From Coprobacillaceae bacterium (GTDB lineage Bacteria > Bacillota_I > Bacilli_A > Erysipelotrichales > Coprobacillaceae): a stretch of 32,000 bases of DNA. This document shows, piece by piece, positions 11,295 to 31,892 of this stretch. Every line of letters begins with the position of its first letter. Positions within the stretch are counted from its first letter, which is position 1. The DNA lies in the NCBI GenBank assembly GCA_963675515.1, contig OY776328.1, positions 1,170,001-1,202,000 of the forward strand, read 5' to 3'. The notes beneath the pieces were generated by a model. That model saw only the letters and a list, made by a program, of their open reading frames with translations, ran no database searches and had not been told where the DNA came from. A program made the translations under genes and the position numbers.

Positions 11295-11318
11295 AAAGGT
11301 GGCAAAATTGCCACCTTT
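11295..11318. repeat. 24-bp palindrome, copy A (AAAGGTGGCAAAATTGCCACCTTT)
   Basis: Perfect 9-bp arms around AAAATT. It starts 4 nt after the parA stop and ends 17 nt before the parB-like ATG. Confidence 0.85.
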
Positions 11319-11335
11319 GCAGAAAGGGGAAGAAA

Positions 11336-12124
11336 ATGCTTAGAAATTTCGTTGATAGTACCAATAAACTTGTCAGATCGACAAGAAATAAGAGGATTGA
11401 TATAGAGGATATCATACCAAACCCAAATAACAGCTTTTCAATGGAGAATCTTGAAGAATTGAAAGAATCAATCATGTTGTATGGCTTGAAGCACAATATA
11501 ACCGTCTATGATGAAGATGACAACGGCAATTATATGATACAGTCCGGTCATCGAAGATTCGAGTGTATCAAACAGTTACAAGATGACGGGTTGATTGATG
11601 ATGAGATTGATGTAATCGTGATTCAACCAGTAAGTGATAACTTGCAGATGAAATTGGATATAGTGTTGGGTAATGCCCATCGGGATATGACAACTGATGA
11701 CAAGATTAATATTGTTGAAATGTTGCTTGATATCTGGGAAGAAATGACCAGCGAACAACGGCCAAATGGGAAAAAGCGAGATTGGATTGCAGGTTTCCTT
11801 GGCTGTTCAGGAAGAACGGCTCAAGAGTATATTAATACATTTAAAAACCCTGATGAACTAATGGGTGATGATGTAGATCAAGCCGGTGCAGATGATGAAG
11901 AAATGAAGGAGGAAAACATCTATGATTTTAACAAGCTGGTAAAAGAACTGCAAGCCACGACCAACAAGTTGAAGAGGATTCATTCAAATTGCATTGACAA
12001 CAATATGAGTGATCTGGTTGTCAATGATGAAAATGGAACTGAATCGAGAATTGGAGATCTGATTGAAGTTGAATTACTGAGAATGAAACGGCTTACTGAA
12101 ACGACCAAAATTCAAACTAAATGA
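11336..12124 (+). CDS. parB: ParB/KorB-like N-terminal-domain protein (ParB/Srx fold with HTH)
   Basis: 262 aa. The ParB-box-like segment is LYGLKHNITVYDEDDNGNYMIQSGHRRFECIKQL, a putative HTH is GFLGCSGRTAQEYINTF, and the C-terminal region is acidic. It lies immediately downstream of parA. Confidence 0.8.
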   Translation: MLRNFVDSTNKLVRSTRNKRIDIEDIIPNPNNSFSMENLEELKESIMLYGLKHNITVYDEDDNGNYMIQSGHRRFECIKQLQDDGLIDDEIDVIVIQPVSDNLQMKLDIVLGNAHRDMTTDDKINIVEMLLDIWEEMTSEQRPNGKKRDWIAGFLGCSGRTAQEYINTFKNPDELMGDDVDQAGADDEEMKEENIYDFNKLVKELQATTNKLKRIHSNCIDNNMSDLVVNDENGTESRIGDLIEVELLRMKRLTETTKIQTK

Positions 12125-12184
12125 CACTTCCTGATATCAATATATAAAGCATATAATCACTAATTATCTTAATAAGTGGAAAAA

Positions 12185-13255
12185 TTATACATGTCTACTA
12201 AATTTCGATATGAACGTTGCCCTTGAAGTCACACCTGTTTTTTCGTAAACCTTTGAAACGTGTTTTTTTACAGTCGTAAGATTAATACCGAGGTCATTTC
12301 CGATTTTTCTATTACCGTGCCCTGACAGAAGTAAATCGGCTACTTCTTTCTCTCTGTCAGTGAGTTGGTAAAAATTCATCAGATAGTTAACAAAAAGACT
12401 TGGGTCTTGAGCATTTGTCAGTTTTTCATAAGTAGCTTTTTGTCTTAATGAGGCAATAATGTCTCCCAATTTGTAGTTATGTACATCTAATAGGTCATAA
12501 GCATAATACACTTTTGAAAATTCGCTTTTGAAATTCAAATTGAAACTGAGCCTTGTAATCTCTCCATCAAGCTCCGAGCATATTGTCGCAATTCGATCTA
12601 AATCAACGCAGTTTAAAACCATAATAAATTCATCGTCTGTGATTCTGGCTGTCCAGAAATTGTTTTCATTTTTGGTACAATACTCGTTGACTACCATGTT
12701 AACTACATAAGCACTGAATTCTTTATCAGGGGTATTAAGGTTTTCAAGGTTCATTATTATTATACCTGTGGTATTACACTGTAAATCATTTTTATTTATT
12801 TCGACAGATAATCTGTCATAAAGGTATTTTTTGTTAAAGAAATTAATATCTTCATTTGCCGTCTCGATATTATCTGATCTCTTTGCAGCGGTAGTAAAAA
12901 AATAGTCCTTAGAGACATCGATTAAACATTCAAGTACAAGCTTTTTGTCACTTATGAGTATAGGAGTTGTAAGTATATTATAAATGGCCGAGTCCAAGGT
13001 TTCCATTTTGCATACGGTCCGATCTAGACAAATTGCATTATAAGAACTGCAGTTGTAACATGGTGAATTGCGATTCCAAAATTCGTAGCAATTAGCTTCC
13101 TCTGGTACCAGCATCTTTGGCATGGTTGCACTGATTGAATAAACAACTCTTTCACTAGGGTCTACAATTCTAACAATATCATATATTTCGATGAGTATAT
13201 CGATGATGTCATTTAGGTCATCAAGATTATTGTAGATTTTCATAACTACCTCCAA
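12185..13255 (-). CDS. LuxR-family transcriptional regulator with a Cys-rich N-terminal domain and a degenerate GGDEF-like middle domain
   Basis: 356 aa. The C-terminal LuxR/GerE HTH is LTDREKEVADLLLSGHGNRKIGNDLGINLTTVKKHVSKVYEKTG. The middle segment ..IIIMNLENLN..ARITDDEFIMVL.. aligns to the DxD..RyGGDEF layout with the GG and metal-binding Asp positions lost. The N-terminal cluster is CYEFWNRNSPCYNCSSYNAICLDRTVC. Confidence 0.85.
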   Translation of the reverse strand: MEVVMKIYNNLDDLNDIIDILIEIYDIVRIVDPSERVVYSISATMPKMLVPEEANCYEFWNRNSPCYNCSSYNAICLDRTVCKMETLDSAIYNILTTPILISDKKLVLECLIDVSKDYFFTTAAKRSDNIETANEDINFFNKKYLYDRLSVEINKNDLQCNTTGIIIMNLENLNTPDKEFSAYVVNMVVNEYCTKNENNFWTARITDDEFIMVLNCVDLDRIATICSELDGEITRLSFNLNFKSEFSKVYYAYDLLDVHNYKLGDIIASLRQKATYEKLTNAQDPSLFVNYLMNFYQLTDREKEVADLLLSGHGNRKIGNDLGINLTTVKKHVSKVYEKTGVTSRATFISKFSRHV

Positions 13256-13364
13256 GGCAAATTTTCTAGACAGTTAAGTATGTTGTATTATAGCACTTCT
13301 TGCTACAAAGTAAACACTGAACTAGAACGCGCATTAGAATAATATAACAAATATTGAAAATAAT

Positions 13365-13386
13365 ATATTGTACTTTAGTACAATAT
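13365..13386. promoter_or_regulatory. 9-bp perfect inverted repeat upstream of the LuxR-type gene (candidate operator)
   Basis: ATATTGTAC (13365-13373), TTTA, GTACAATAT (13378-13386). It lies ~110 nt upstream of the start at 13255, between that gene and the IS. Confidence 0.3.
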
Positions 13387-13441
13387 TTACTCAAAAAATA
13401 ATGCAATATTACCAAACTATTATCTTTTTGAGTTATATATT

Positions 13442-14807
13442 AGTAGTGTCAATATTTTTGTGTAAATTAGTAAAATTAGTTCTTATGATGATCTTGATTA
13501 TTCGTCTTCCATCAGAAACCATCGCTCGTATGAGATTCCTTTGAATCCCTTGTGGGTATGGTTCATGAATTTTTGGTTATATTGCTCAAATTGCGAAACG
13601 ATGTATTTCTCCGCAGCCTCCTCATTTGGGAATTGTTCCTTAGCTTTGATTTTTCGCTTGAGCTGTTTATTGAAACCCTCAATCAGATTGGTTGTATAGA
13701 TGCTCTTGCGTACCGATTCAGGGTACAAATAGAAAGTGAATAGGTTCGAATTCTCTCCGAGTAATTTCGCCACTTTTGGATATTTTTGGCCCCACTTGAT
13801 GGTGAACTCCTTGAGCTGTTCACTTGCCGCCTCTTCGGTTTCACAATGGTAGACGCGCTTAAAATCCTGTGCAATCTCGCTACGGTCTTTCACTCTTACT
13901 TTGGCTACAATGTTTCTTGAAACATGCACCAGGCAACGTTGAATTTTGGCCATCGGAAAAGTGTCTTCAATGGCGTTCTCAACACCAGTTAGCCCGTCAG
14001 TGCAAAACAAAGCAACCTCTTCCATGCCGCGTGTTTTGAACTCTTCGAACAATTCCCGCCATGTTGTCGCAGATTCGGTTGGTGCAATTGAATATCCGAT
14101 TATTTCCTTTGTTCCCTCCAAAGTTATGCCTATGGCGATATGAACGGCCTCTTTAGAGACTGTATCTCGTCGCAAAGGAATGACAGTAGCATCAGTATAA
14201 ACAACTGCGTATTGCTTGTTTAACGGGCGATTTTTAAAGGCTTCAACGTGGGCGACTATTTCCTTGGTGATATTGGAAACAGTCTGTCTAGAGTATTTCT
14301 TACCGTAGATGGATTCAACAGTTTTAACAATGTCACTGTTGGTCATCCCTGAATTAAATAGGTCAATGACAGTGTTGGTGGTAGCCAGATCGTTTCGTTG
14401 ATATTTGGGAACCAAAGGTGAATCAAAGCCACCTTGACGGTCACGTGGTATGCGCAGGTTCAATACACCATATTTGGTGTTGTAATCACGATTGTAATAG
14501 CCATTTCTTGAATTTGAATTCTCAGATCGGTCGTATTTCTCGTAATCAAGAAAAACGGTAAGTTCGGACTTCAAAATATCGTTGATGGCATTCTCCAATT
14601 CGCTCCGGAAAAGTTCTGATACTACTTGCTCAAAAGCTGGCAGATTATTATCATTTGATATTAGACTTCTAAGTAAAGTTGTTGTAAAATAGTTCATGGG
14701 TGTAATCCTCTCGTAAATTGTTTTCGCAGAACTAATTTTACAAGGGTTACGCCCTTTTTTCTACTTGAAAGTTGAAATCCTATTTACACAAAATATTTTA
14801 CACTATC
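13442..14807 (-). mobile_element. Intact IS256-family insertion sequence with an 8-bp target-site duplication
   Basis: The terminal inverted repeats are AGTAGTGTCAATATTTTTGTGTAAAT (13442-) and the reverse complement of the right end, GATAGTGTAAAATATTTTGTGTAAAT. They are flanked by identical TATATATT at 13434-13441 and 14808-14815. The element holds a single transposase ORF. Confidence 0.85.
13498..14697 (-). CDS. IS256-family (Transposase_mut) transposase
   Basis: 399 aa with family hallmarks: RNGYYNRDYNTKYGVLNLRIPRDRQGGF, ..TDATVIPLRRD.., FCTDGLTGVENAI and QRCLVHVSRN. Confidence 0.95.
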   Translation of the reverse strand: MNYFTTTLLRSLISNDNNLPAFEQVVSELFRSELENAINDILKSELTVFLDYEKYDRSENSNSRNGYYNRDYNTKYGVLNLRIPRDRQGGFDSPLVPKYQRNDLATTNTVIDLFNSGMTNSDIVKTVESIYGKKYSRQTVSNITKEIVAHVEAFKNRPLNKQYAVVYTDATVIPLRRDTVSKEAVHIAIGITLEGTKEIIGYSIAPTESATTWRELFEEFKTRGMEEVALFCTDGLTGVENAIEDTFPMAKIQRCLVHVSRNIVAKVRVKDRSEIAQDFKRVYHCETEEAASEQLKEFTIKWGQKYPKVAKLLGENSNLFTFYLYPESVRKSIYTTNLIEGFNKQLKRKIKAKEQFPNEEAAEKYIVSQFEQYNQKFMNHTHKGFKGISYERWFLMEDE

Positions 14808-15347
14808 TATATATTCTTTGCTTGCACTATTTTCTAGGTTGTGTAGTTATCTTTTTAAATTTACTGTTTTGTAAATATATGTAGCATAATACTAGAGCGA
14901 TGACAACTGGTAATACCAGTAGAGAGGGCTAATGAATATGCAATATACAAGTAAATTTCAAGAACATAGCAATAATAGGATTTACATATTCGGAATTTTA
15001 TTGAAACATAATATATTAATAATGCAGAAAATTGCGCTATAGTAACATAAATTATGATTTGTCTAATATGGTACCGTAGTACCATATAAATTAATGGTAA
15101 TTAAGAGTATGATGTTAATGTTATTTTTTGTTAAATAATGTTCAATGGTTCAGGGAGTGAATACTAAATATGTATTCTTTCATCTAGGTGGTGTTGAGTA
15201 TTTTCTAGTGCTTTACGGATTTATTATTTGTATAGTTGGTTCTATGAAGGCGGATCATTGAAGTAAAATGGTAAATTGTGAAATTTTATTTGAATGACCT
15301 CGTAACTCAGGTTGAAAATTAACTTATTGAAATGTCGGAATTTAATC

Positions 15348-15457
15348 GGTCAAAATCCAACAGATTTCTACATTTCAGATTAGATATCTAATTTTCGCAA
15401 ACCTAAAGAGAAGCTTCCTGTGTTATATGGTCATTCAAAAATTTTATTGATTGGAGG
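15348..15457 (+). repeat. ~110-nt intergenic direct repeat, copy 1
   Basis: It aligns with 22510-22620. Identical blocks include ATTTCTACATTTCAGAT (15364-15380 and 22528-22544), TTTCGCAAACC, AAAGAGAAGC and CCTGTGTT. It ends at the SD of the Cys-rich gene copy 2. Confidence 0.65.
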
Positions 15458-15462
15458 ATAAG

Positions 15463-15600
15463 ATGATGGGAAAAACATTTAAGCCGAACGATTGTGAAAA
15501 TTGCCCTCATAATCGGGGTTACAAAAAGACAAATACATGTATGCCTTGTGGGTACTCGTTCTGTTGCTTTGAAAAACTGAAGATGAATGAAAATAAATAG
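15463..15600 (+). CDS. Small Cys-rich zinc-ribbon-like protein (45 aa), copy 2; not in the ORF track
   Basis: My translation is MMGKTFKPNDCENCPHNRGYKKTNTCMPCGYSFCCFEKLKMNENK. The SD GGAGG is at 15453-15457. The first ~48 nt, including 9 nt upstream of the ATG, are nearly identical to 10121-10168. Confidence 0.6.
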   Translation: MMGKTFKPNDCENCPHNRGYKKTNTCMPCGYSFCCFEKLKMNENK

Positions 15601-15622
15601 AATATCTAGAATTACAAATAAT

Positions 15623-15651
15623 GGGCGGAGTTGAGTTAACAACTACCGCCC
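15623..15651 (+). terminator. Hairpin downstream of Cys-rich gene copy 2 (weak terminator)
   Basis: GGGCGGAGTTG pairs with CAACTACCGCCC with one bulge and an AGTTAA loop. There is no strong T-run. Confidence 0.35.
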
Positions 15652-15748
15652 TAAAGCATTTACAGGCATTTATCAATTTGATTTAAAATATTCAAATTAT
15701 ATGTTTCTAACTAGTGTGATCTAAATTAATTATACGAGGAGAGTAAAT

Positions 15749-16042: not shown

Positions 16043-16205
16043 GGCTAAAGGTGATAATTTGGAAAATCATTTCACGATGATGTGTTAGTAAGGTAATGCT
16101 AAAAAGGGGTTGATCATATTCCACAATAGTACAATATCCGTATATTTGAAATGGTTCTAAAATGAGGTGAGAATTCATAAAATAATTAAAAGAGAGGCTT
16201 TAAGC

Positions 16206-17090: not shown

Positions 17091-17099
17091 TATTTTATT

Positions 17100-17123
17100 A
17101 AGGACAGATTCTGTCCTTTTTTA
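17100..17123 (+). terminator. Rho-independent terminator between the two surface protein genes
   Basis: AAGGACAG (17100-17107) pairs with CTGTCCTT (17111-17118) and is followed by a T-run. Confidence 0.6.
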
Positions 17124-17138: not shown

Positions 17139-19994
17139 ATGAGAGAATTCAAAATATTCAAAAAATTTATATTTATGTTTTCGTTGGCATTGATGTTGCT
17201 TGGAACAATGAGTACAGATGTCTATGCAGCTTCAAGTATTACGTATAATGGAAAAGTCACTTCAACATACACAACAGCCGGGGATTTTACCGTTGATGGT
17301 CAGCAGGCATTTTGTATTGAGCACGAAAAATCTACAGCTGGAACTAGAACACCTATACTTGGAACAGAGATATATTCAAATGAAATCTTTAGAAAGGCAC
17401 TTTACTATGGTTGGAGCGGGGCTGGACAATGGAGCGGTTTTACATCACGATCTGACGGTATTGTGGCTACATCATTGGTTTTGTCGCACATTTATAATGG
17501 TACAGATATCAAACACGATTCCCAAGCATTTTGGGATTTTTTGCAGACAGCACCAAACGTGCCGTCGACATTTTTAAAGCTTTCAGATTCAAATTTAAAG
17601 TCATATGTATCAGGAAGTTATCAAAGGACAGAAGATACAAGACTGACAGCGATTGGTGTTACTGGTAATGGTAGTGTTACATTCCCATTACCAAGTGGAA
17701 TTACTTTAGTGAACGTTTCAACCGGAAAAACCTATACCGGTAGTGCTACCATCGGCAATGATGAGAAGTTTTATCTTAGGGCTCCGCTATCATACAGTGG
17801 CAATTATGACAGCGGAACACTATCAGGAAATAATATTTTTAAATTTCAAGCTTTAATATTCAAAACTTCCGCAAGTGTTCAAAATTTAGCAATAGGAAAG
17901 CCGATTTTTGACCCGACTGTTACAGTCAGATTAACCGCTGAATTTGCAGCTCAATTAGGGTCAATCAGTGTTACAAAATCATTAAGCAGTGCCGATAGTG
18001 AAAAGGCAACAGTATCCGGTGCCGTTTATGGTTTATATGCAAAAAACAATATCTCAAACGGAACATCAGTAATCTACAATGCCGGTGCATTGATTGAATC
18101 AAAGACTACTGATAGCCTTGGAAAACTGACTTACAGCAATCTTTATGCAGGTAACTATTACGTAAAAGAAATTACAGCCCCTGCATACACTAATTTGAAC
18201 AGCACTCAATATGACGTTACGCTTTCATATTCAGGTAGCATGGACGTAGATGTATCAACAAGTAATGATATCCAAAGAAACAGCGTATCTATTTCAAAGG
18301 TTGATGTTGCAGGGGAAGAAATTCCGGGAGCAACAATGACCCTGATTGATGAAGGAGGAAATACCATCGATGAATGGGTTTCAACTAATGAGGTTCATGT
18401 GATCAGTGGATTGCCAGTAGGAAATACTTATACCTTGAAAGAGGAACTTGCACCACATGGTTATTTAATCGCTAGTGATATCACTTTTACAGTGGGGACA
18501 GATAACCAGGTAATTGAAATGATTGACACTCAACCTGCAGGTACTATCAATCTGACAAAATCATTAAGCAGAAGTGACAGCGAAAAAGCTACACCATTCG
18601 GAGCTGAATATTCTTTATTTTCAAGTGCTGATGAACTGATTGCAACAAAAATAACAGATGAAAACGGTAAGTTATCTTTTGAGGGATTGCCACTAGGTGA
18701 TTACTATGTTCAAGAAACAAAAGCGCCTGCATATACAATCCTGAATGGCAAACAATACAACGTGTCTTTGGCTTATCAAGATCAAAATACCGCAGTAGTC
18801 TTTGAAGAATTGGCAACTAGAAATGATGTAGTGACTAAAGATTTGTCAATTTCTAAAGTTGATGTTGCCGCTGATGAGATTGTCGGAGCGACAATGGAGC
18901 TTTACGATAACAACGGTGATTTGATGGTTACATGGGTTTCAACTGATAAGCCTTATATCTTGGGTAATGTTCCAATCGGGAATACTTATACCTTGAAAGA
19001 AACAATCGCCCCTAATGGTTATGTGTTATCGACTCAAGAAATCACCTTCACAGTTCTTGATGATGGGAATATTGAACAGTCTGTAGAAATGATCGATAAG
19101 GTTGTAAGCATCTCGAAAACCAATCTTACTGGTGAAAAGGAATTAGCCGGAGCTACATTGCAAGTCGTTGATGTTGACGGAAACGTTGTTGACGAATGGG
19201 TTTCAACTGACGAAGCACATAACGTTTCAGGATTGATTGAAGGTAATGATTATTCGTTGGTTGAAGTTGTTGCCCCAGAGGGATATGTATTGTCTACTGA
19301 CAGTATTGATTTCACCGTTTCAAATGATAAGGAAGATCAATACATCGTTATGAAGGATAATTACGTTGCCGTATCAAAAGAAGAAGACAACGGAACTAAA
19401 GTAAGCGGAGCTACAATGCAAGTTCTTGATGTTGATGGTATCGTTGTTGACGAATGGGTTTCAAGTGATGAAGTTCATTATGTATCAGGATTGACTGTTG
19501 CCGGTGAATACACATTGCATGAAGCACAAGCGCCTAAAGGTTACTTGCTTGCTGAAGATATGACTTTCACCGTGGATACCATCGATTCTGTAATCACCAT
19601 GATTGATGATTACACTAAAGTGACAGTCACCAAATATGACATCACAAACAATAAGGAATTGGAAGGAGCTAAACTACAGGTAATAGATTCTCAAGGGAAT
19701 ATCGTTGATGAATGGATTTCTACCAAAGATCAACACTTGATCAAATACCTTGAAATCGGGCAGACATATACCTTAAGAGAAACAATCTCCCCTAAAGGTT
19801 ATTCAATCTCTCAAGATGTCAAATTTACGGTAACTGAAACCGGAGTTGAACAACCGATCGCAATGTATGATGAATTATTGCCGGTGTCTATTATGAAAAC
19901 CGGTGATGAATCACCAGTCTTGTTATTCACTGGTTTGGGAGTAGTTTCATTGGCTACCTTGATTTTTGTATCGAGAAAGAAAAATGAGGAATAG
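17139..19994 (+). CDS. Large cell-surface adhesin with prealbumin-like (SpaA/Cna-B type) repeats and a C-terminal sorting-signal-like tail
   Basis: 951 aa. The signal peptide ends ..STDVYA. Two repeats are of the type SVTKSLS.ADSEKAT..GA.Y.L......YYV.E..AP.Y. Five repeats are of the type SISKVD..G.E..GATM...D..GN.VDEWVST.E.H..SGL..G..YTL.E..AP.GY......ITFTV. The C-terminus is IMKTGD, then a hydrophobic helix, then RKKNEE. Confidence 0.9.
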   Translation: MREFKIFKKFIFMFSLALMLLGTMSTDVYAASSITYNGKVTSTYTTAGDFTVDGQQAFCIEHEKSTAGTRTPILGTEIYSNEIFRKALYYGWSGAGQWSGFTSRSDGIVATSLVLSHIYNGTDIKHDSQAFWDFLQTAPNVPSTFLKLSDSNLKSYVSGSYQRTEDTRLTAIGVTGNGSVTFPLPSGITLVNVSTGKTYTGSATIGNDEKFYLRAPLSYSGNYDSGTLSGNNIFKFQALIFKTSASVQNLAIGKPIFDPTVTVRLTAEFAAQLGSISVTKSLSSADSEKATVSGAVYGLYAKNNISNGTSVIYNAGALIESKTTDSLGKLTYSNLYAGNYYVKEITAPAYTNLNSTQYDVTLSYSGSMDVDVSTSNDIQRNSVSISKVDVAGEEIPGATMTLIDEGGNTIDEWVSTNEVHVISGLPVGNTYTLKEELAPHGYLIASDITFTVGTDNQVIEMIDTQPAGTINLTKSLSRSDSEKATPFGAEYSLFSSADELIATKITDENGKLSFEGLPLGDYYVQETKAPAYTILNGKQYNVSLAYQDQNTAVVFEELATRNDVVTKDLSISKVDVAADEIVGATMELYDNNGDLMVTWVSTDKPYILGNVPIGNTYTLKETIAPNGYVLSTQEITFTVLDDGNIEQSVEMIDKVVSISKTNLTGEKELAGATLQVVDVDGNVVDEWVSTDEAHNVSGLIEGNDYSLVEVVAPEGYVLSTDSIDFTVSNDKEDQYIVMKDNYVAVSKEEDNGTKVSGATMQVLDVDGIVVDEWVSSDEVHYVSGLTVAGEYTLHEAQAPKGYLLAEDMTFTVDTIDSVITMIDDYTKVTVTKYDITNNKELEGAKLQVIDSQGNIVDEWISTKDQHLIKYLEIGQTYTLRETISPKGYSISQDVKFTVTETGVEQPIAMYDELLPVSIMKTGDESPVLLFTGLGVVSLATLIFVSRKKNEE
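18283..19875 (+). repeat. Diverged tandem coding repeats (about 85-90 codons each) inside the adhesin gene
   Basis: Five VDEWVS-type units, with one SVTKSLS-type unit interleaved, are visible in the translated sequence. Confidence 0.7.
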
Positions 19995-20021: not shown

Positions 20022-20045
20022 AAAGGTGGCAAAATTACCACCTTC
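20022..20045. repeat. 24-bp palindrome, copy B (AAAGGTGGCAAAATTACCACCTTC, 2 mismatches)
   Basis: It begins 27 nt after the adhesin stop codon and forms the first of a tandem pair. Confidence 0.8.
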
Positions 20046-20067: not shown

Positions 20068-20091
20068 AAGGGTGGCAAAATTGCCACCTTT
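20068..20091. repeat. 24-bp palindrome, copy C (AAGGGTGGCAAAATTGCCACCTTT)
   Basis: It starts 46 bp downstream of the start of copy B and ends 29 nt before the ssb ATG. Confidence 0.85.
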
Positions 20092-23649: not shown

Positions 23650-23821
23650 ATATTATGTTATAAATCCATTGTTGCCACAAATCAAGTGCTCTCTCCATTT
23701 AGATATAGAACAATTGATTATGAAACTTAATTAATAGTGATTTACCGTTTTATAATGCTCTCTACTATTAAAATGCAATTTCAATTTTTATTCTTGTATA
23801 CATCTTTTCTGCAGCTATATT

Positions 23822-24036
23822 GCAACCAACGTTATATTCACAACCTGCCCTTATGATAATTCGCCAATGGAACGCTATTTCAACACTTTTAAAAACGAAT
23901 ATCTAAGGATATTTACATTTAAAACTATAAGCGAGCTATATCAAGGAATTAGTGAATTTAGCTACGTAAAATATAATCTCTAGAGGCCGCATTCATTAAA
24001 TTGTGGTTTGCCACCAAGTATAGATCGATATGCAAT
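23822..24036 (+). pseudogene. IS3-family transposase C-terminal remnant (integrase-core end)
   Basis: The frame reads ..CPYDNSPMERYFNTFKNEYLRIFTFKTISELYQGISEFSYVKYNL*RPHSLNCGLPPSIDRY. This is the conserved DNxxxExxF..lK.E...........i..yi.fYN..RPH end of IS3 transposases, with an in-frame TAG. No upstream catalytic region is present. Confidence 0.6.
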
Positions 24037-24588: not shown

Positions 24589-24933
24589 ATGGATAGAATG
24601 ATTAAATACAAACGAAAAGTAATGATTGGATTGAGTACCTTAATTGGTACTCTTTTGTTTAATATGGCAAACGTATATGCAGTAGGATTTGATGAAGGGG
24701 CGGCCAAAAGTCTGATCAGACCGTGGATTGACGGTGTGACTAATGTGATACTCTGGGTTATCCCTGGAGCCTTGTTTTTCTATGTCGGGAAGATTGCTAT
24801 TAAGTACCTCGTATCAAGCGAAGATGAACGGCAAAGAAATAATATCTGGGATAAGATCAGTAAAGGGGTAATCGTTGCCATCGTTGCGGAATCGATTGTC
24901 GCAATTATCAAGATATTTGGTTTCACCTGGTAG
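24589..24933 (+). CDS. T4SS-associated small membrane protein with VirB2/TrbC-like topology
   Basis: 114 aa. A signal peptide ending ..NVYA is followed by two hydrophobic helices. The gene sits immediately upstream of the VirB6-like gene, with the SD GAAGGA. Confidence 0.6.
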   Translation: MDRMIKYKRKVMIGLSTLIGTLLFNMANVYAVGFDEGAAKSLIRPWIDGVTNVILWVIPGALFFYVGKIAIKYLVSSEDERQRNNIWDKISKGVIVAIVAESIVAIIKIFGFTW

Positions 24934-24955
24934 GGTGGCAATTTTGCTACCTTTA
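24931..24955. repeat. 24-bp palindrome, copy D (TAGGGTGGCAATTTTGCTACCTTTA; centre inverted, 1 arm mismatch)
   Basis: It overlaps the TAG stop of the 24589 ORF and ends 19 nt before the TTG start at 24975. Confidence 0.8.
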
Positions 24956-24974: not shown

Positions 24975-26783
24975 TTGGCTAGTGATCTTATAAGATCGTT
25001 GATGTGGGCGGTCACCTCACTGTTCTTGAATATTATCGATTCACTCTGGGCAATCGCAAAAATGATTGTTGGGTTGGACTTTGCCAATCAGGATTGGATT
25101 TGGCAGTGGTTGAATATTTTGGATTTGTTCCTGATATTTTTCATTATTCTATTTTCTGCCAAAACTTATCTCAAGGCTTATGTTGATGAAGACTACATGA
25201 GCAAAATTGATATTACCAAAATTATAACCAAGTTGGTTCTGGTCGGATTTTTTGTGGCTGTGTTGCCTTTTACAATCAGAACGGTAAGTACTATGTCAAG
25301 TGCAACTGCAAGCAATATTGAGGTGTTTACCGGGGTTGAGGACGCCAAGTTATCAACCATCATAATCAATTCATCTTCAATGGACTTGTCCGATGTAGAT
25401 AAGGAATTTACCAGTATGGGCGACATCTTGAATGCCGAGTTATCAAGTGCTAATAAATCAATCTTGTCAGAATCAAATTGGCAAACAGCTAGAGATAACA
25501 TCATTAATGCGGTTAATGATTATAGTTTGGCCGGGCTATCCGAATATGAGCGAATATCCAAAGCTAATGAAATGTATAAGGCAACCTATGAGGAATATGT
25601 CCAATGGCAAGAGAGTCTCAATTATGACAACATAATTGCCAATAATTATTGGGTGACCGAAGATGTCAATGATATTGATATCAACAGCGGTGAAACGTCA
25701 GGGCAATGGTATGACTACCTGCTAAGTAAAGTAAGTTTAGGTTTGGCTGGTGATGTAGAAAAGGCCTATTATTTTTTCCCTAGTTGGAGCAGTCTTTTTT
25801 TGGTTTTGATTACAACAATGATATTCACTGTGGTATTTATCGGGGTGATCTTTCAATTGGCTCAAAGGGTGTTTTCAATGGTTTTGAAAATTTTTCTAAT
25901 GCCGTATGCGGTATCGACAATGGTTGACCCGGAAAGCCGGACGTTTTCAACCTGGATAAAATACATGATGGCCGACGTGATGTCCAACTGGTTTCAGCTT
26001 TATTCGATCATGTTCTTGTTTGCCTTTTTAGGTAATGATACCCTGGAAAATCTATTAGTCGGCAGTGGACCGGTGACGATACAGGTTGAGTTTGCCAAGC
26101 TGTTCTTATTGGCCGGAGGCCTAATGGCTATCTATACCGGTCCAAGTGGCATAGCGGCTATTTTAGGTGGTTCGGAAATATCAGCGGCAAGCTCATTGTC
26201 AAATACAACGCAAATGCTTAGAATGGCTACTTCAATGACGGGAATGGTAGCCGGTGGTTTAGGTCTTGGTTATCTGGGAGCGACCGCCGGGGCAAGTACC
26301 GCAGGCAAGTTAGTCAACACAGGAACACGAGGAGTCAGTGCCGGATTGAACGCTGTTACCGGTGGCCGTATGGGTAATTCGTTTTCCAATTCACAGGGCA
26401 TAGCCGGTAGGATCAAGAATACTTCAATTGGGGGAGCATTGCATAGTGGTTTTTATGGTGGTGGGTCACCCGGTGGTGATATGACAGCTGACACATTCAA
26501 TTCAAATCCGACTGACGGTCAGATGAATATGGCCAGCGGTTTAGGTATCAATCCTGATGGAATGAATCAAGGACAATTAGGAATTGAGATCGACAAAGCT
26601 ACAAGAAGTTCATATACGGCCGATACAGGCCAAAACAGTTCAACAGGAACAATGTCTACTAAACTTGATAAAGTGTCAGGAATCGCAAGAAAAACAGGAA
26701 GTATGCACAATGCAATCAAGAACGCATCACGCAATCGGGTGAACAGCAGTGCATTACCAATTTATTTGAAAAAGAAAGGATAG
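24975..26783 (+). CDS. Polytopic T4SS membrane protein (VirB6/TrbL-like) with a Gly/Ser/Asn-rich C-terminal tail
   Basis: 602 aa. A TTG start lies 7 nt after the SD AGGAGG. The protein has multiple TM helices, and its position before the PrgI/VirB3-like and VirB4-like genes is typical of Gram-positive conjugation operons. Confidence 0.75.
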   Translation: MASDLIRSLMWAVTSLFLNIIDSLWAIAKMIVGLDFANQDWIWQWLNILDLFLIFFIILFSAKTYLKAYVDEDYMSKIDITKIITKLVLVGFFVAVLPFTIRTVSTMSSATASNIEVFTGVEDAKLSTIIINSSSMDLSDVDKEFTSMGDILNAELSSANKSILSESNWQTARDNIINAVNDYSLAGLSEYERISKANEMYKATYEEYVQWQESLNYDNIIANNYWVTEDVNDIDINSGETSGQWYDYLLSKVSLGLAGDVEKAYYFFPSWSSLFLVLITTMIFTVVFIGVIFQLAQRVFSMVLKIFLMPYAVSTMVDPESRTFSTWIKYMMADVMSNWFQLYSIMFLFAFLGNDTLENLLVGSGPVTIQVEFAKLFLLAGGLMAIYTGPSGIAAILGGSEISAASSLSNTTQMLRMATSMTGMVAGGLGLGYLGATAGASTAGKLVNTGTRGVSAGLNAVTGGRMGNSFSNSQGIAGRIKNTSIGGALHSGFYGGGSPGGDMTADTFNSNPTDGQMNMASGLGINPDGMNQGQLGIEIDKATRSSYTADTGQNSSTGTMSTKLDKVSGIARKTGSMHNAIKNASRNRVNSSALPIYLKKKG

Positions 26784-26787
26784 GATA

Positions 26788-27120: not shown

Positions 27121-27769
27121 CAAGCAACAAAAAAAGCAGGACAAGCTGATTAAAAAACGGAAAGGCAAACTACGAAAGACTTTTGAATGGCTGGCCATCG
27201 AACGGATTGAACAAGATCAGGTGGTGCTAAAAGAAAAATCGAAATACTACTACGTCAAAGGTATCCGGGTTGAGCCTAGAAACATTTACATGATGAATGA
27301 TATTGAGCGTAATCAGCTGATCGAATCGCTGACCAGTGCCCTCAACCGAATCAACTTCAAGTTCTATTGGAAGTTCGTATATAACACGCCTTCACTGGAC
27401 ACCCAGAACGAAAAGCTGATCAAACTCAATGAACATTATCAGGCTGATAATCACAGGTTGGATTATTTGACCCAATTATTCCTGGATTTCCATGAGTGGT
27501 ATGTAGACAGCTTCTATGAGATATCGTTTTACCTGGTTGTGGTCGAAGACGAGAAATACTTGGAGAAAAGATTTGACGATCTCTACAAATACTTTAGAAA
27601 CAGCCAGCTGGTAGTCGAGCCAATGAACAAAAACGATTATGTCAACATGATCAAGTATGACTTCAACAACGACAACATAAACGAGTACTATTTTAGCCGC
27701 CTGCTCAATTATGAGAACTATCATTTTAACAATTTGAATCTGGGAATGTCTGATCATTCTATAATCTAA
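27110..27769 (+). pseudogene. VirB4-family T4SS ATPase, N-terminal ~219 codons only (truncated)
   Basis: The sequence ..TFEWLAIERIEQDQVVLKEKSKYYYVKGIRVEPRNIYMMNDIERNQLIESLTSALNRINFKFYWKFVYNTP.. follows the N-terminal layout of Gram-positive VirB4/PrgJ/TraE-type proteins. The ORF stops at 27769 with no Walker A/B region, and the DNA that follows is unrelated and AT-rich. Confidence 0.55.
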
Positions 27770-27853
27770 AATATTTTTCAAGACGTATAGTGCGGCTAAT
27801 TAAAATAATTACTATACTCATGCAAAGATATAACAAAAAAATTGTATCAAACA

Positions 27854-27904
27854 TTGCATTTTTATTAACTATACTGTAAAATAAGTAATAGATAGCGCTA
27901 TCTA
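27854..27904 (+). promoter_or_regulatory. Candidate promoter plus 16-bp perfect palindromic operator of the cargo operon
   Basis: TTGCAT (27854-27859), 17-nt spacer, TAAAAT (27877-27882). The palindrome TAGATAGCGCTATCTA lies at 27889-27904, just downstream of the -10 element and ~73 nt before the ATG at 27977. Confidence 0.45.
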
Positions 27905-27976
27905 GTGTATTAATACTTGCGTTGAGTTATTAATTTTAGGTTTTTGATTTTAAACTATAATAAGAGGAGAAAGATA

Positions 27977-28966
27977 ATGTGTTTTAGAAAGTTTATGGTA
28001 TCGATTTTGGTGCTTTTTATAATGATCTCTTTTTGGGAATTTCCTGTTGAAGCTAAGAGTAAATATGTCTATTCAACTAACACTTTTGAAATCAAAAACA
28101 AAGAGGCCAAGGCAATATATGATGGTCTGATGAAAAAAAATAATGATAATAAGAGTCGGGGAGATGATGGTAGAGAATTTGAAAGTCAAAATTTTGGTGA
28201 AGACGATCTTGTGAATTTTAAGAAACTAGTAAAAATTTCCGACGGTAATAGCAATTTTAATAGTCTATATCAGTATCAAGATGAAAATGTTCTAGACATT
28301 ATCGTATACGATGAATCCGATAATTCTTACGTTGGAATTGAAGAGGATAAAGTAAATAATACTGCAATACTATACATAGATGATGAAATGTATAGTATTT
28401 GTGCAAGTGACAATGATATTTCGCTAAAAAGTGTAGCCGGAGATACGATAAATATTTATGAGGAAGTTTTGGATAGCTCTTCAAATGAAGCGCCGATAGT
28501 TAGCACAGCTATATTGAGTCCAAATGAGGATAGCTATGATGTTTCTGTTCAAGCAATCGTTCCTGAAACCACTTCATCTATTTCTTGGGTTTTACTTGGA
28601 GGTCCATACCACTCCACTACTAAAATTCTTTTTGAAGTTTTACAAATAATTGGAACTGTTGCAGGGATGGTAACCCTTAGCGTTACTTCTCCTATATTGG
28701 GTGTTGTATTGATGACATATGGAGTTGCTGTCAGCGTAGGGGCATCTTTTTACCCAACTATACATTTAAAAATATATCAATACGGCGCATCAGATTGTCT
28801 CACATATATTAGGCAAAAAAAATACTATTACGGAGCCTACAGCGAAGTCAGCGGTACTTGGTATGAACCTATTAAAACCACTAGTGGAGCACTCAAATAT
28901 ACATATTCATATTTTCATAGTGTCAGGCCAGATTACACTGGCAATCCTGCGTGTTTAAAGTATTAG
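27977..28966 (+). CDS. Secreted protein of unknown function with a hydrophobic, Cys-containing C-terminal domain
   Basis: The ORF is trimmed to the ATG at 27977, with the SD AAGAGGAGA. The signal peptide is MCFRKFMVSILVLFIMISFWEFPVEA. The N-terminal part is acidic and low in complexity. The C-terminal ~130 aa contain Gly/Ala/Val-rich hydrophobic stretches and cysteines in ..ASDCLTY.. and ..NPACLKY. Confidence 0.8.
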   Translation: MCFRKFMVSILVLFIMISFWEFPVEAKSKYVYSTNTFEIKNKEAKAIYDGLMKKNNDNKSRGDDGREFESQNFGEDDLVNFKKLVKISDGNSNFNSLYQYQDENVLDIIVYDESDNSYVGIEEDKVNNTAILYIDDEMYSICASDNDISLKSVAGDTINIYEEVLDSSSNEAPIVSTAILSPNEDSYDVSVQAIVPETTSSISWVLLGGPYHSTTKILFEVLQIIGTVAGMVTLSVTSPILGVVLMTYGVAVSVGASFYPTIHLKIYQYGASDCLTYIRQKKYYYGAYSEVSGTWYEPIKTTSGALKYTYSYFHSVRPDYTGNPACLKY

Positions 28967-28967
28967 T

Positions 28968-29402
28968 GTGAAAAAAATTATTCTATTATTGTCTCTATTT
29001 GCATTATCGGTGAGTATGTTATTTGCTGTTTTGAAGCAAACTACTGACACTAAACTAATTACTGTTGAAATTTATGAAATTCCAGGATGTTATTATTGTA
29101 AAAATGCAATAGATGATTTTTCACTATTGCTCACTGATAAGTACGGAAAGTTTGTCGAAGTAGAAATAATTAATGTAGAAGATGGGGATGGATCAAAAAA
29201 ATATTCTAAGTTAATAAATTCTATTGATGAATTTGGCAAAGAATATGAGAATTATTTTCCATTGATTAATATCGAAAATTACTTTGTAGTTTGTGGGTAT
29301 GATTATTATTTTGGTGAAGAAATAATTAACGATATGCGAAGACTAGATGCCGGAATGCATTTGGGCGTCCAACTTGAAGATTATCGATATGTATGGAGGT
29401 GA
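28968..29402 (+). CDS. Membrane-anchored thioredoxin/glutaredoxin-fold protein with a CYYC active-site motif
   Basis: 144 aa. The GTG start lies 1 nt after the previous stop. An N-terminal TM anchor is followed by ITVEIYEIPGCYYCKNA, the beta1-CxxC-alpha1 arrangement of the Trx fold. Confidence 0.7.
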   Translation: MKKIILLLSLFALSVSMLFAVLKQTTDTKLITVEIYEIPGCYYCKNAIDDFSLLLTDKYGKFVEVEIINVEDGDGSKKYSKLINSIDEFGKEYENYFPLINIENYFVVCGYDYYFGEEIINDMRRLDAGMHLGVQLEDYRYVWR

Positions 29403-29406
29403 TAAA

Positions 29407-29655
29407 ATGACTAAACAGAAATGTCCATATTGCAATCAGGAAATGTTAGAGGGTTTCATTGAGAATACCGCTTGCCCACTTGCATGGACTCCAAAAGGTA
29501 AAAATCGGCCATTCTTAAAACTTCATAGAATTGGCGATTATGAAGATGGGATGGGTAATTATGTATTCCCATATGGTTGGCGTGTAAAAGCTTATAAATG
29601 TGATAGTTGTAACGTAATTATCATAGATAATCTGAATAAAAGTAGCAAACACTGA
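29407..29655 (+). CDS. Small zinc-ribbon protein (DUF6487-like; two CxxC pairs)
   Basis: The ORF is trimmed to the ATG at 29407, with the SD GGAGGTG. The protein begins MTKQKCPYCNQEMLEGFI and contains ...YKCDSCNVIII. Confidence 0.7.
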   Translation: MTKQKCPYCNQEMLEGFIENTACPLAWTPKGKNRPFLKLHRIGDYEDGMGNYVFPYGWRVKAYKCDSCNVIIIDNLNKSSKH

Positions 29656-29914
29656 ATTTATCCAGCAAAAATAAATAATCGCAATTATTACAATTGTAAT
29701 TATTGTAGTCAAAACGAAGTGGATCGAAAATGCAATTTATTATTTATGAAATTTTCTATCGCAATTTTTGAAGAAATAGCAAAGATAATTTTGAAAATTT
29801 ATCGTCAAAAGCAGGTAAGGAACTATCCTTGCCTTTTTATATGTATTTGCAATAAATCGGCTTTAGCCACAATGATTACAATAATAGAGATAATAGTAAA
29901 ATTATGGAGATTAT

Positions 29915-30274
29915 ATGGAGAAATGCTTATATTATATCTTGATGAACGATAAATATAAATCAATAAAAGAAAGCGGCAATTATGAATTTGATTATATCGT
30001 CAAGGTAAGATTTGGTGGAAGATAAGGAATCAATATCGATTATTATATTGATGGTTGTTTTGATGAATATGTTGATGATCCTCAACGTTTGCATTGTGTT
30101 ACATTCAAAACATTGGCCGACAATCTAAGTGCCATGAAGATTATGGGTGAACTGACCGGAACGCTCACTTATTATGCAGACGATTATTTGATCCTTGAGC
30201 TAGATCGATACACACCGACTTATCAAAGAGAAACGGAAGAACGCATAAAAGCAGAGAAAGGAAAAACATTATGA
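29915..30274 (+). pseudogene. Possible 119-codon ORF interrupted by one in-frame TAA (30023-30025); alternatively two small ORFs
   Basis: The ATG at 29915 (SD GGAG at 29906-29909) is in the same frame as the tracked ORF 30089-30274. Between them there is a single stop codon and no good restart signal. Confidence 0.3.
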
Positions 30275-30414
30275 AACGACAAAAATATATCCCGGTAGAT
30301 AATTGGGACGAGTTGGAACAAGCAGGACTTACAGTAGATGACTTGGACGATCTAGTGGAAATGACGGAAGAAGATTTTGAGTATGACGATGAAGAATCAA
30401 AAGTTGAGGACTAG
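30271..30414 (+). CDS. Hyper-acidic small protein (47 aa); not in the ORF track
   Basis: My translation is MKRQKYIPVDNWDELEQAGLTVDDLDDLVEMTEEDFEYDDEESKVED, with 19 D/E in 47 residues. The ATG overlaps the preceding TGA (ATGA), and the stop lies 3 nt before the ardC ATG. Confidence 0.55.
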   Translation: MKRQKYIPVDNWDELEQAGLTVDDLDDLVEMTEEDFEYDDEESKVED

Positions 30415-30417
30415 ACA

Positions 30418-31860
30418 ATGGCAAAGAAAAGTTATCCTAAAAAAACCAAAGCAGAAAAATATGACGAATGGCAACAGGGCATAGTTGATTACTTCCTGGA
30501 AGATTTACAAAGGGTCAAAGACGAGCTGGAACAAGGAGTAGAAAACCCACGTTTGGCCTGGGAAAAAGAATGGGTCAACCTAATCCAAAAATCTATGGCC
30601 AGTGGCAAAGACTATGCCGGTAAAAATCAGCTGATCTTGTCATTGCAGACTGCTAGAAAGAGATATACAGACAGTCGGTGGATAACCTACAATCAGATCA
30701 TCAAGCACAATCAGGAATGTAGCGAAAACGAAAAGTGGAACGTGCCTTTGGAATTTCTCAAAAAGGATAACGGCCACATGACCACCGTAACGTTTGTAGA
30801 TATCAAATATACCTATGACAAAGACAAGCGATACTATACTGAAAAGCAGATGAATGAGATGATAAAAAACAGCAACGGTTTGATATCGAAAAACGACTTT
30901 GACAAGAAAATCAATCTCGGCTATAACAACGTCTATAACGTAAGTCTGGTTGAAGGTATCGAACCAGAGATACCGCTGGTGGTAGACTTTGATGATTACG
31001 TCATTGACAAGATTGTCGATAACTACCTTAGAAACAGTGGGGTTGAAGTCATCAATGCCCAACAAAATAGGGCCTACTATGCCCCGGCAGAAGACAAGAT
31101 TTGTCTGCCACCTCAAGGTGCTTTTAATGACAAACAGGGATATTATTCAACCTTGCTGCATGAAGTCGGCCATTCGATCGGTCACAAGGACAGAATGAAC
31201 CGGGAAGGAGTTTCCGTTACCGGATTCACTGATAAGAAAACCTATGCAAAAGAGGAGCTAGTAGCGGAGTTTACCAGTGTCTTGTTGAATACTAAATTGA
31301 ATATCCATACTGATGACAGCAACGAGAGCAAATACAATAACAATCTAGCCTACATTGAAAACTGGATTGAAATATTGAAAGACGATCCAAGCGTGCTGAT
31401 GGATAGTTTCGATCAGGCGGTTAAGGGTTATGATTATTTTGTGGAAAAAAGCAATCTTGAACTTTACAAAGAATATTTCGTGACGGACAAGGAAGATACC
31501 ATGTCAATCGTTAAGAAAAACATACTTGAATATCTCAATGAGACATTTGAAGATACATATGACAATACCTGCTTCAACAACATGGAAGATGTCGGTTTGC
31601 TTGTGACTACAGTTTTTGATAGTGAAGACAACGAGTATCAGTTTGAGGCAGTTGTGGACTTGAAAAATTTCAAATTTACCAAGCTGATTGATGGTGAAAT
31701 CTTCTACCAAAAAACATATGACAATATCGAACAACTTAATGAGGCTGAATTGATGGGATTGAATGAATCAGACTTGATGTATTTTGACGAAGATAAAAAA
31801 GAGATCAAGCAATTTTTTGAAAAACTGAATGGTAACGACCGGGAATTTGCACAAATCTAA
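30418..31860 (+). CDS. ardC: ArdC-family antirestriction protein (N-terminal ssDNA-binding ArdC_N domain plus zincin-like metallopeptidase domain)
   Basis: 480 aa. The N-terminal domain shows ..DYAGKNQLILSLQ...SRWITYNQI.. and the HExxH motif is in STLLHEVGHSIGH. There is an extra C-terminal extension. Confidence 0.85.
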   Translation: MAKKSYPKKTKAEKYDEWQQGIVDYFLEDLQRVKDELEQGVENPRLAWEKEWVNLIQKSMASGKDYAGKNQLILSLQTARKRYTDSRWITYNQIIKHNQECSENEKWNVPLEFLKKDNGHMTTVTFVDIKYTYDKDKRYYTEKQMNEMIKNSNGLISKNDFDKKINLGYNNVYNVSLVEGIEPEIPLVVDFDDYVIDKIVDNYLRNSGVEVINAQQNRAYYAPAEDKICLPPQGAFNDKQGYYSTLLHEVGHSIGHKDRMNREGVSVTGFTDKKTYAKEELVAEFTSVLLNTKLNIHTDDSNESKYNNNLAYIENWIEILKDDPSVLMDSFDQAVKGYDYFVEKSNLELYKEYFVTDKEDTMSIVKKNILEYLNETFEDTYDNTCFNNMEDVGLLVTTVFDSEDNEYQFEAVVDLKNFKFTKLIDGEIFYQKTYDNIEQLNEAELMGLNESDLMYFDEDKKEIKQFFEKLNGNDREFAQI

Positions 31861-31868
31861 CAATGAGC

Positions 31869-31892
31869 AAAGGTGGCAATTTTGCCACCTTT
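31869..31892. repeat. 24-bp palindrome, copy E (AAAGGTGGCAATTTTGCCACCTTT; centre inverted)
   Basis: Perfect arms. It starts 8 nt after the ardC stop and ends 19 nt before the next ATG at 31912. Confidence 0.85.

Follow-up and report, generated by a model that had tools for sequence, protein, structure and literature searches.

The 32,000-nucleotide stretch analyzed here, hereafter the window (contig OY776328.1 of a Coprobacillaceae bacterium, assembly GCA_963675515.1, positions 1,170,001 to 1,202,000 of the forward strand), carries a Firmicutes-type conjugative element with a G+C content of 38%. An 18-bp palindromic core recurs five times in gaps between the genes of this element, and the same core is found 5-11 times in four other kinds of conjugative element. 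We propose, at a probability of roughly 40%, that these palindromes are recognized on duplex DNA by a symmetric reader that the element encodes, in a layout like that of the global operator and centromere sites of KorB. We infer both that this reader is a protein dimer acting on double-stranded DNA and the effect that its binding would have.

The palindrome, its positions and its distribution

The core, which we call motif I, reads GGTGGCAA-WW-TTGCCACC. A scan of the window with the pattern GGTGGCAAWWTTGCCACC, allowing up to two mismatches, found five sites against 0.01 expected, and none of 100 shuffled sequences reached five. Three cores are perfect (11298-11315, 20071-20088, and 31872-31889) and two have a single mismatch (20025-20042 and 24934-24951). 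On the plus strand of the window, the half-site GGTGGCAA is present at these five copies only. Addition of the AAA and TTT flanks extends the cores to 24-mers, and the five copies span 20.6 kb. A sequence-only reading of this DNA had described five near-identical palindromes at these places, three with an AAAATT centre and two with AATTTT, and both descriptions are confirmed.

All five copies lie in gaps between co-directional genes on the plus strand. Copy A (AAAGGTGGCAAAATTGCCACCTTT; 11295-11318) is perfect and separates parA, whose stop codon is 3 nt upstream, from the gene for a ParB-like protein, which starts 17 nt downstream. Copies B (20022-20045) and C (20068-20091) form a tandem pair, 46 bp from centre to centre, between an adhesin gene and ssb. 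One arm of copy B is mutated (core GGTGGCAAAATTACCACC), which places a C.A pair in the plus-strand stem; copy C has a perfect core and ends 26 nt before the ssb start codon (20118). Copy D (core GGTGGCAATTTTGCTACC; 24931-24954) lies between a pilin-like and a VirB6-like gene, has a G.T pair in its stem, and ends 20 nt before the VirB6-like start codon, its first three bases being the TAG stop codon of the pilin-like gene. Copy E (31869-31892), perfect and with an AATTTT centre, begins 8 nt past the ardC stop codon and ends 19 nt before the next start codon (31912).

Measured from the upstream stop codon, the five 24-mers start at -3 to +27 nt, and in four cases 17-26 nt separate the end of the 24-mer from the next start codon, which puts it immediately 5' of the Shine-Dalgarno (SD) sequence. 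Non-coding DNA makes up 16% of positions 7903-32000, and the chance that all five copies would fall in gaps is p ~1e-4. The earlier placement of the copies in short co-directional gaps is thus upheld, with one of its coordinates revised: copy D is best given as 24931-24954 rather than 24931-24955.

Only seven homologues of the ParB-like protein are detectable, and the contigs that encode them are syntenic elements. An ortholog of copy A is retained in the relatives L049, L052, L048, and L050. Of these, L049 (85% identity) keeps copies A to D; its copies B and D are perfect and have flipped centres relative to the window (AA to TT, giving AATTTT in copy B, and TT to AA), and its tandem pair is spaced at 44 bp. 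On the Coprobacillaceae chromosome L048, whose ParB-like protein is 54% identical to that of the window, the 18-mer stands between parA and parB, between parB and the next gene, after the adhesin gene, and before the VirB6-like gene, where the copy D ortholog is again perfect. In L050 (53% identity), a tandem pair at 46 bp spacing stands to either side of parB. Every ParB-bearing family has sites around parA and parB, some of them in tandem pairs, and the copy number in relatives ranges from 4 to 30.

The comparison of the window with L048 shows how narrowly conservation is focused. Across three aligned orthologous gaps (parA/parB, after the adhesin gene, and before the VirB6-like gene), the palindrome is identical at 17-18 of 18 positions and the remainder of the gap is unalignable, while the flanking coding DNA is 70-74% identical; next to the core, L048 has G...C where the window has AAA...TTT. 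Because a hairpin selected for shape alone would drift through compensatory changes at this distance, the palindromes are under selection for their sequence, and not for shape alone.

We then scanned one genome per species with a 20-mer, which returned 47 blocks, mostly singletons in unrelated phyla. All multi-copy matches are on Firmicutes conjugative-element contigs: CANPIH010000010.1 (10-11 copies), BAHP02000076 from an isolate of the VE202 collection, CALWNT010000198 (L011; nine copies, every centre ATAT), the Lachnospiraceae contig L047, and a Coprobacillaceae chromosome. In the CANPIH metagenome-assembled genome (MAG), the VE202-01 isolate draft, and the CALWNT MAG, every 20-mer match is on the element contig. 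On the basis of these three genomes, a host chromosomal repeat of the repetitive extragenic palindromic (REP) kind is rejected. Among the 72,556 plasmids of PLSDB, we found no relative of the element by DNA or by VirB6-like protein and no multi-copy carrier of the motif, which excludes a known plasmid family on both counts. The singletons in unrelated phyla, those on phage contigs, where the motif occurs only singly, and a recurrent singleton that represents a pMA67-type tet(L) plasmid are treated as chance matches or ordinary hairpins. Two GC-rich metagenome contigs (L102 and L113) carry three GTGGCAA-NN-TTGCCAC palindromes with co-varying flanks, adjoining a palindromic repeat array with a 74-bp period that resembles a CRISPR array; this context is unrelated to the Firmicutes elements. 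A literature search found no description of the site set, and a search for the motif gave primer sequences only.

A further relative, the L173/L174 type, carries a different but related palindrome. Its VirB6-like protein is 35% identical to that of the window, and it shares the window's gene order (adhesin, ssb, pilin-like, VirB6-like, and PrgI-like), followed by VirB4, hydrolase, and ArdC. It has no GGTGGCAA sites. Its palindrome, GATGGAAC-WW-GTTCCATC (motif II), is present in about 30 copies in 31 kb and has the layout of motif I, with 8-bp arms, a 2-nt A/T centre in either orientation, and a tandem pair. The positions also match those of motif I: after the adhesin gene, near ssb, at or after the VirB6 gene, after ArdC, and around parA. 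The two half-sites have five of eight positions in common (G1, T3, G4, G5, and A7), and the other three differ, each by a matching change in the two arms. When both motifs are aligned together, position 2 pairs as G-C 41 times and as A-T 27 times, position 6 as C-G 36 and A-T 29 times, and position 8 as A-T 37 and C-G 26 times. The relative has switched its sites together to a related palindrome, in a concerted change of specificity. With a core conserved where the gap is not and a centre free in its orientation, such a switch is in line with the earlier view of a sequence-specific, two-fold symmetric site.

The L173 element is a mosaic. Its secretion genes resemble those of the window, and its adhesin, hydrolase, and primase resemble those of the CANPIH element, which carries motif I; motif type therefore tracks none of the adhesin, hydrolase, primase, or secretion proteins. 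Elements of this type are common. A profile of the surface protein next to the adhesin matched 1,793 proteins; of the 120 that were listed, most share 80-95% identity with their L173 counterpart, and one comes from Faecalibacillus faecis. The DUF3991/Toprim primase gene of L173 (20207-21261) is divided into three open reading frames (ORFs), either as a pseudogene or through assembly errors. On contig L203, positions 700-900 hold a G+C-rich structured leader with alternative pairings and a terminator of its own, upstream of a 53-aa ORF and parA; it includes one motif II copy, and Rfam gave no match for it.

Three motif II copies lie in frame inside genes, each translated as DGTSSI (L174 8139-8156 and 8667-8684; L173 16585-16602). 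Two of them are in variable parts of a TopB-like topoisomerase gene and are kept in 11-12 strains.

Copies within three genes recall the Rickettsia palindromic elements (RPEs) and raise the idea of a self-propagating palindrome with no dedicated reader. It would be a cassette that template switching or short-patch conversion spreads and homogenizes, both inside one element and among co-resident ones, and that is tolerated in gaps and a few protein loops. Hairpin template switching typically produces frequent flips of the centre, the elements are mosaics of one another, and the cassette-like conservation takes in the adjacent linker. However, the first TopB copy aligns gap-free to E. coli TopB, so that residues were replaced and not added, the three genomes above have no copies outside their elements, and orthologous positions are stable across lineages. 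We also know of no efficient mechanism that homogenizes 18-bp units several kb apart. Such an origin is, in our judgment, highly improbable.

Candidate readers of the sites

The gene that follows copy A (11336-12124, plus strand) encodes a protein of 262 aa. Its Pfam ParB_N match scores 25.4 bits, just under the cut-off of 26.3, and its PDB sequence matches are ParB, Spo0J, and Noc. The AlphaFold model (predicted local distance difference test score 75) gave ParB, Noc, and KorB as the best Foldseek matches, at E values of 3e-7 to 5e-6. It comprises an N-terminal ParB domain, a helix-turn-helix (HTH) at about residues 147-166, a disordered linker, and a C-terminal helical/beta domain. At the position of the CTP-binding arginine box GERRxR, the protein has SGHRRF, which does not vary among 8 homologues. 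By its predicted structure, the protein is a genuine member of the ParB/Noc/KorB fold with an HTH.

By analogy with KorB of IncP plasmids, the sequence-only reading had named this protein as the binder of the palindromes; it would occupy all five sites as a combined partition protein and global repressor. The layout fits this analogy, and the protein has the corresponding fold. ParA is encoded directly upstream, copy A stands between parA and parB in all ParB-bearing relatives, tandem pairs occupy both sides of parB in L050, and in L011 one copy is placed between the divergent promoters 5' of parA. In size, the palindrome (18 bp, with half-sites of 8 bp) also belongs to the class of parS, Noc-binding (NBS), and OB sites. 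Chromosomal parS itself (consensus TGTTNCACGTGAAACA) has no half-site in common with the core GGTGGCAAWWTTGCCACC.

The analogy breaks down where the sites occur without a ParB. The integrative and conjugative element (ICE) on CANPIH010000010.1 is complete, runs for ~27 kb from relaxase to integrase, and has the site in ten or eleven gaps, yet it encodes neither ParA nor a ParB_N protein; L175 likewise has 10-11 sites and no ParB_N protein. The order on its contig is a host dprA fragment, a NikA/MobC-like protein, a MobA/VirD2-type relaxase, an XRE regulator, surface proteins, an adhesin, a type IV coupling protein, PrgI, VirB4, a cell-wall hydrolase, a VirB6-like protein, a primase with DnaG-Zn, DUF3991, and Toprim domains, and a tyrosine integrase. 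A hidden Markov model of the ParB-like proteins, run with --max against all six-frame ORFs of the ParB-less loci, found nothing beyond noise at E values up to 10. In the L173/L174 type, with its switched motif, ParA is present and no ParB-like ORF is found in 31 kb. L011 encodes ParA and a ParB_N protein, both flanked by sites; the latter is only 25% identical to the window's protein and differs in its putative recognition helix (SESTIRDLTY versus SGRTAQEYIN), and the core is the same.

Because site-bearing relatives lack any ParB, the ParB-like protein is not a general reader and, on these comparisons, cannot serve in all families; its nomination as the reader is unsupported outside the window's lineage. 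The ParB_N score below the Pfam cut-off and the altered arginine box also count against a KorB-like role, which we regard as unlikely. Within the window's lineage alone the protein is the best available candidate, although an improbable one, in a share of likelihood that overlaps that of the duplex-site reading. A KorB/ParB-type system would show sites only alongside a ParB-family reader. The co-occurrence found here does not follow that pattern, so the site set is not a member of the KorB family.

Other candidates were examined as readers common to all families. XRE-type HTH proteins are only 24-30% identical to one another and their recognition helices differ, and the 180-aa gene after parA in the L173 type, considered as a hidden ParB, showed no similarity by hhalign, PDB search, or Pfam. 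No small protein common to the families was found by phmmer at E values up to 0.5. DUF3991/Toprim is the sole nucleic-acid enzyme family present in every fully examined element family, that is, in the window, the Coprobacillaceae relative, the ParB-less ICE, and L173. In L173 it is in three fragments, and its architecture is homologous in the ParB-less ICE and the Coprobacillaceae relative.

Duplex DNA, RNA, or single-stranded DNA

The variation of the palindrome, its conservation, its restriction to the element and the switch in L173/L174 together point towards an element-specific reader of two-fold symmetry on duplex DNA, and not towards generic terminators. Centres AA, TT, AT, and TA all occur, and AA and TT swap between orthologous sites of relatives that are 85-95% identical; among near-identical strains, the two orientations at orthologous sites were counted as 2 vs 10, 11 vs 1, and 2 vs 9. 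Position 8, beside the centre, is unable to pair across a 2-nt loop and is still symmetric, being A/T in motif I and C/G in motif II. In L011, the copy at 7462-7479 lies between divergent near-consensus promoters upstream of parA (TTGACA-17-TATAAT and TTGACA-17-TACAAT). This copy and the in-frame copies are ill-suited to an intercistronic RNA signal.

On the duplex-site reading, the functional unit would be the 18-bp core, made of two 8-bp half-sites whose centres are 10 bp, or one helical turn, apart, and its middle A/T dinucleotide would not be read. A two-fold symmetric, presumably dimeric, factor encoded by the element would recognize this core on duplex DNA. The sites fill most of the usable gaps along the transfer-gene operon, from a stop codon to the next ribosome-binding site, and their occupancy would mark the element at many points. 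An occupied site could block read-through transcription or serve to load or nucleate a ParB-type clamp, and the site adjoining parA could in addition be a partition site.

The palindromes may instead punctuate the operon at the RNA level, an explanation that we hold to be possible but doubtful. They would then be hairpins between cistrons, serving as weak or conditional terminators under antitermination or as 3'/5' stabilizers of mRNA, and they would be so uniform in sequence either because a cassette of hairpin plus SD was duplicated or spread by gene conversion, or because an RNA-binding factor recognizes one of the arms. As RNA, the window copies fold into stable, G+C-rich stem-loops with stems of 9-10 bp (-15.5 to -17.4 kcal/mol, z -1.7 to -3.8), placed precisely in the interval from stop codon to SD. 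The linker that leads to the SD recurs as well (TTTTAGATTGGAGG in the ParB-less ICE and NTGGAAAGGAG in the L173 type), and in L031 the palindrome lies between convergent genes. Conjugation operons of Gram-positive bacteria are known to combine multiple internal terminators with processive antitermination (PMC8191782, PMC8955417). On the sense strand, G.U pairs outnumber A.C pairs by 18 to 8; this points the same way but is confounded by A-rich upstream and T-rich downstream composition, and we set the strand bias of wobble pairs aside as a test.

Several features fit an RNA role poorly. The window and Coprobacillaceae lineages keep the exact core without a U tract: at least five T in the 8 nt after the stem are present at 0 of 9 sites in the window lineage and 1 of 8 in the Coprobacillaceae lineage, and in the window the TTT is taken up in pairing with the AAA flank. 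For termination, three U immediately 3' of the stem are stressed as critical (PMC8955417). A terminator scan (hairpin plus at least five T in 8) called none of the five window copies, which agrees with the earlier remark that they lack a proper T run and are not ordinary terminators. Selection on structure alone would leave unexplained both the identical sequence at 54% protein identity and the switch at all sites, and RNA offers no rationale for copies inside ORFs or between divergent promoters. The strand bias in the window is inconsistent, since copy B has its C.A pair on the sense strand and copy D can fold on the sense strand alone. Sequence-specific RNA recognition is, moreover, poorly served by a perfect A-form stem whose loop is free. 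A cmscan search with the Rfam covariance models, at E values up to 1, gave no match at any of the five copies, so that no known RNA family was found.

A number of observations nevertheless weigh against a duplex site, and several of them count for RNA punctuation. Besides the families described above that lack a ParB-like protein, and in one case ParA as well, no DNA-binding protein common to all site-bearing families was found. None of the five window copies has a convincing promoter-like site adjoining it. In sister families, 17 copies have TTTT directly against the stem on the sense side, and 2 have AAAA on the other. The palindrome makes up nine of the ten terminator-like matches in 12 kb of L203, where a strong promoter upstream of the adhesin gene is followed by two copies with T runs, and in L047 two copies with long T runs end transcription units of small leading-region-type genes. 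In CALWNT, the flanks outside the core differ between copies yet stay complementary (permutation p = 0.0004), an effect that is weaker in the ParB-less ICE (p = 0.02). Across families, position +/-1 pairs as A-T 31 times, G-C 14 times, and G.T 8 times. This covariation, which extends the stem, and these pairs are as selection on a hairpin predicts. The T-run copies of sister families probably terminate transcription; our own reading is that the universally selected feature is the core sequence, to which terminator features were added at some positions in some families.

L047 has a further feature in the same region. Two copies of a structured repeat of ~170 nt (minus strand, 5275-5105 and 4545-4378) each precede a small leading-region-type gene. 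The genes concerned (DpnD/PcfM-like and neighbours) are near ArdC and an EcoRI-like methylase, and each is closed by a motif I hairpin. These repeats may be elements resembling single-strand promoters.

Single-stranded DNA hairpins offer another level of recognition. During transfer, stems on the incoming strand would be read by an element enzyme, most plausibly the DUF3991-Toprim primase, which would start complementary-strand fragments at intervals of ~1-2 kb, much as RepB' does at ssiA and ssiB of RSF1010. The presence of DUF3991/Toprim in each of the four families named above supports this, as does the mean spacing of ~1.5 kb in the L173 type, calculated from site coordinates, with copies forced into a 2.1 kb gene. 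A duplex stem would allow B-form sequence readout with a free loop, and this level would be compatible with the element specificity, with the extended flanks, and with copies placed within genes or promoter regions. Perfect copies fold as DNA at -10.6 to -11.1 kcal/mol; copies B and D, however, fold weakly (-4.3 to -6.3 kcal/mol), adhesin genes of 4 kb have no internal copy, and a hairpin does not require symmetry at position 8. The L173 Toprim gene is in three ORFs, the L173 and ParB-less ICE primases are homologous and yet their motifs differ, and a role of Toprim proteins as primases or hairpin binders is here a supposition. We judge this explanation to be unlikely.

Other known signals were considered and rejected. 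A sigma-54 promoter (TGGCA...TTGC) does not fit, as by inspection the spacing from GG to GC is 9 nt and not 12, and the TTGCCA arm has no usable -10 element at the right spacing to form a promoter. Serine-recombinase crossover sites were considered for the AA/TT centre and a resolvase gene in L173; they were set aside, as recombination would delete core genes and yet gene order is conserved.

The surrounding element and comparison with known systems

In the window, the element's first gene starts at 7903. A DUF3991 and Toprim primase-like protein (9159-10133, plus strand; assigned by Pfam) precedes the ParA-type ATPase of 256 aa (10521-11291, plus strand; Pfam AAA_31, CbiA, and ParA), whose gene is directly 5' of copy A. 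Further along are the thioester/SpaA adhesin (17139-19994), the TrbL/VirB6-like protein (24975-26783), and ArdC (30418-31860), together with genes for SSB, DUF6075, a HAD hydrolase, and the pilin-like protein.

Between the ParB-like gene and g15749, the operon is split by positions 12185-15085, which hold a LuxR/GerE-type gene (minus strand), an IS256/Mutator transposase gene (minus strand), and a 74-aa ORF. This segment is an insertion, since the two flanking genes are adjacent in the 85% identical relative L049; its LuxR gene is also present in L052. A tblastn search of the whole window found no homologue of the VirB4 ATPase or the cell-wall hydrolase. In L173 and L003, these two follow the PrgI-like and 242-aa genes, and the counterpart region of the window is 27769-30418. 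The missing genes, together with an IS3-type fragment at ~23820-24000, suggest that the transfer apparatus in the window is truncated or rearranged.

Four other features of the window concern its non-coding DNA. Left of the element's first gene, positions 7130-7214 (plus strand) match a group II intron domain V/VI model at 39.7 bits against a gathering score of 40, and are probably an intron remnant in a non-coding stretch. An inverted repeat at 7816-7873, with 27-nt arms that are 85% complementary and a 4-nt spacer, is directly upstream of that gene; it may represent a promoter/operator or a structure of the oriT type, and it has no relation to the palindrome. At 7417-7434, also non-coding, the half-site GTGGCAA is present twice as a direct repeat 11 bp apart (GTGGCAAtattGTGGCAAg), which was not seen in the available sequence of relatives. 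The gap that separates g16167 from the adhesin gene contains, at 17100-17118 on the plus strand, a hairpin with a T run that looks like an ordinary terminator (AAGGACAGATTCTGTCCTT TTTTATTT), so that the window operon also holds a conventional terminator of unrelated sequence.

The closest known layout is that of IncP-1 plasmids (RK2/RP4), where KorB has 12 dispersed OB operators (TTTAGCSGCTAAA) and IncC is the ParA partner. In both systems one palindrome recurs many times over a conjugative element, ParA and a ParB-fold HTH protein are encoded beside one of the sites, the sites are not limited to promoters, and the site sequence is particular to each element lineage; the Foldseek matches of the ParB-like protein also include KorB structures. 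The sites described here differ in lying in the stop-to-SD gaps of one long co-directional operon, and not at or near promoters, and in being found also in relatives without the ParB family. The hosts are Gram-positive, of Erysipelotrichales type, and no KorA-like partner was identified.

Hairpins likewise punctuate long transfer operons in conAn-regulated pLS20 and in Tn916, and the sister-family copies with proper T runs resemble these internal terminators. In such operons, terminators are bypassed regardless of their sequence (PMC8191782, PMC8955417, PMC10325885) and so need not share one. Here, in contrast, one core sequence is present at every copy, the window copies have no U tract, and some copies lie within ORFs or between divergent promoters; a counterpart of the conAn genes was not found.

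Two other plasmid systems offer partial parallels. The repeat of the F plasmid centromere sopC is 43 bp. This and other palindromic-repeat centromeres are comparable to the tandem palindromes at 44-46 bp spacing beside parA and parB, but here there are one or two copies per gap, most of them many kb from the par genes and spread over the whole element. RSF1010 ssiA/ssiB and RepB' similarly combine a short, sequence-specific DNA hairpin with an element-encoded primase-like enzyme; they comprise two sites at oriV as opposed to 5-30 dispersed sites here, the enzyme family is different, and priming is here supposed only. REP sequences, bacterial interspersed mosaic elements, and RPEs are also short palindromes in co-directional gaps, and the occasional in-frame copies recall RPEs in particular. 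The present sites differ from all of these in being restricted to a mobile element, much shorter, and at orthologous positions across lineages.

A broader interpretation is that the palindromes form a per-gene punctuation code, with one palindrome at nearly every gene boundary, read by an unrecognized element factor and switchable in specificity as a whole (GGTGGCAA to GATGGAAC). We consider such a code unlikely. Its reader could be a new DNA-binding family, or the DUF3991-Toprim enzyme priming at Okazaki-like intervals on hairpins of the incoming strand. If the code is real, elements that use the same one could cross-talk, and a change of code would set them apart, in the manner of an incompatibility or immunity type. 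A reader that acts on single-stranded hairpins would be relevant to the conversion of incoming conjugative DNA into duplex, a process that is poorly understood in Firmicutes.

The sites provide a simple sequence marker for this group of elements, one related type of which is represented by well over a thousand metagenome proteins, and GGTGGCAA and GATGGAAC form a natural specificity pair for finding the reader by comparison or pull-down. They also make it testable whether a 30-kb transfer operon is controlled at every gene boundary. Dispersed operator sets that link partition, transfer, and establishment are known mainly from Gram-negative broad-host-range plasmids such as those with the IncP KorB system. 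If the duplex-site reading is correct, the palindromes would be a Gram-positive counterpart of these KorB-type sets, in ICEs of human-gut Erysipelotrichales and Clostridia.

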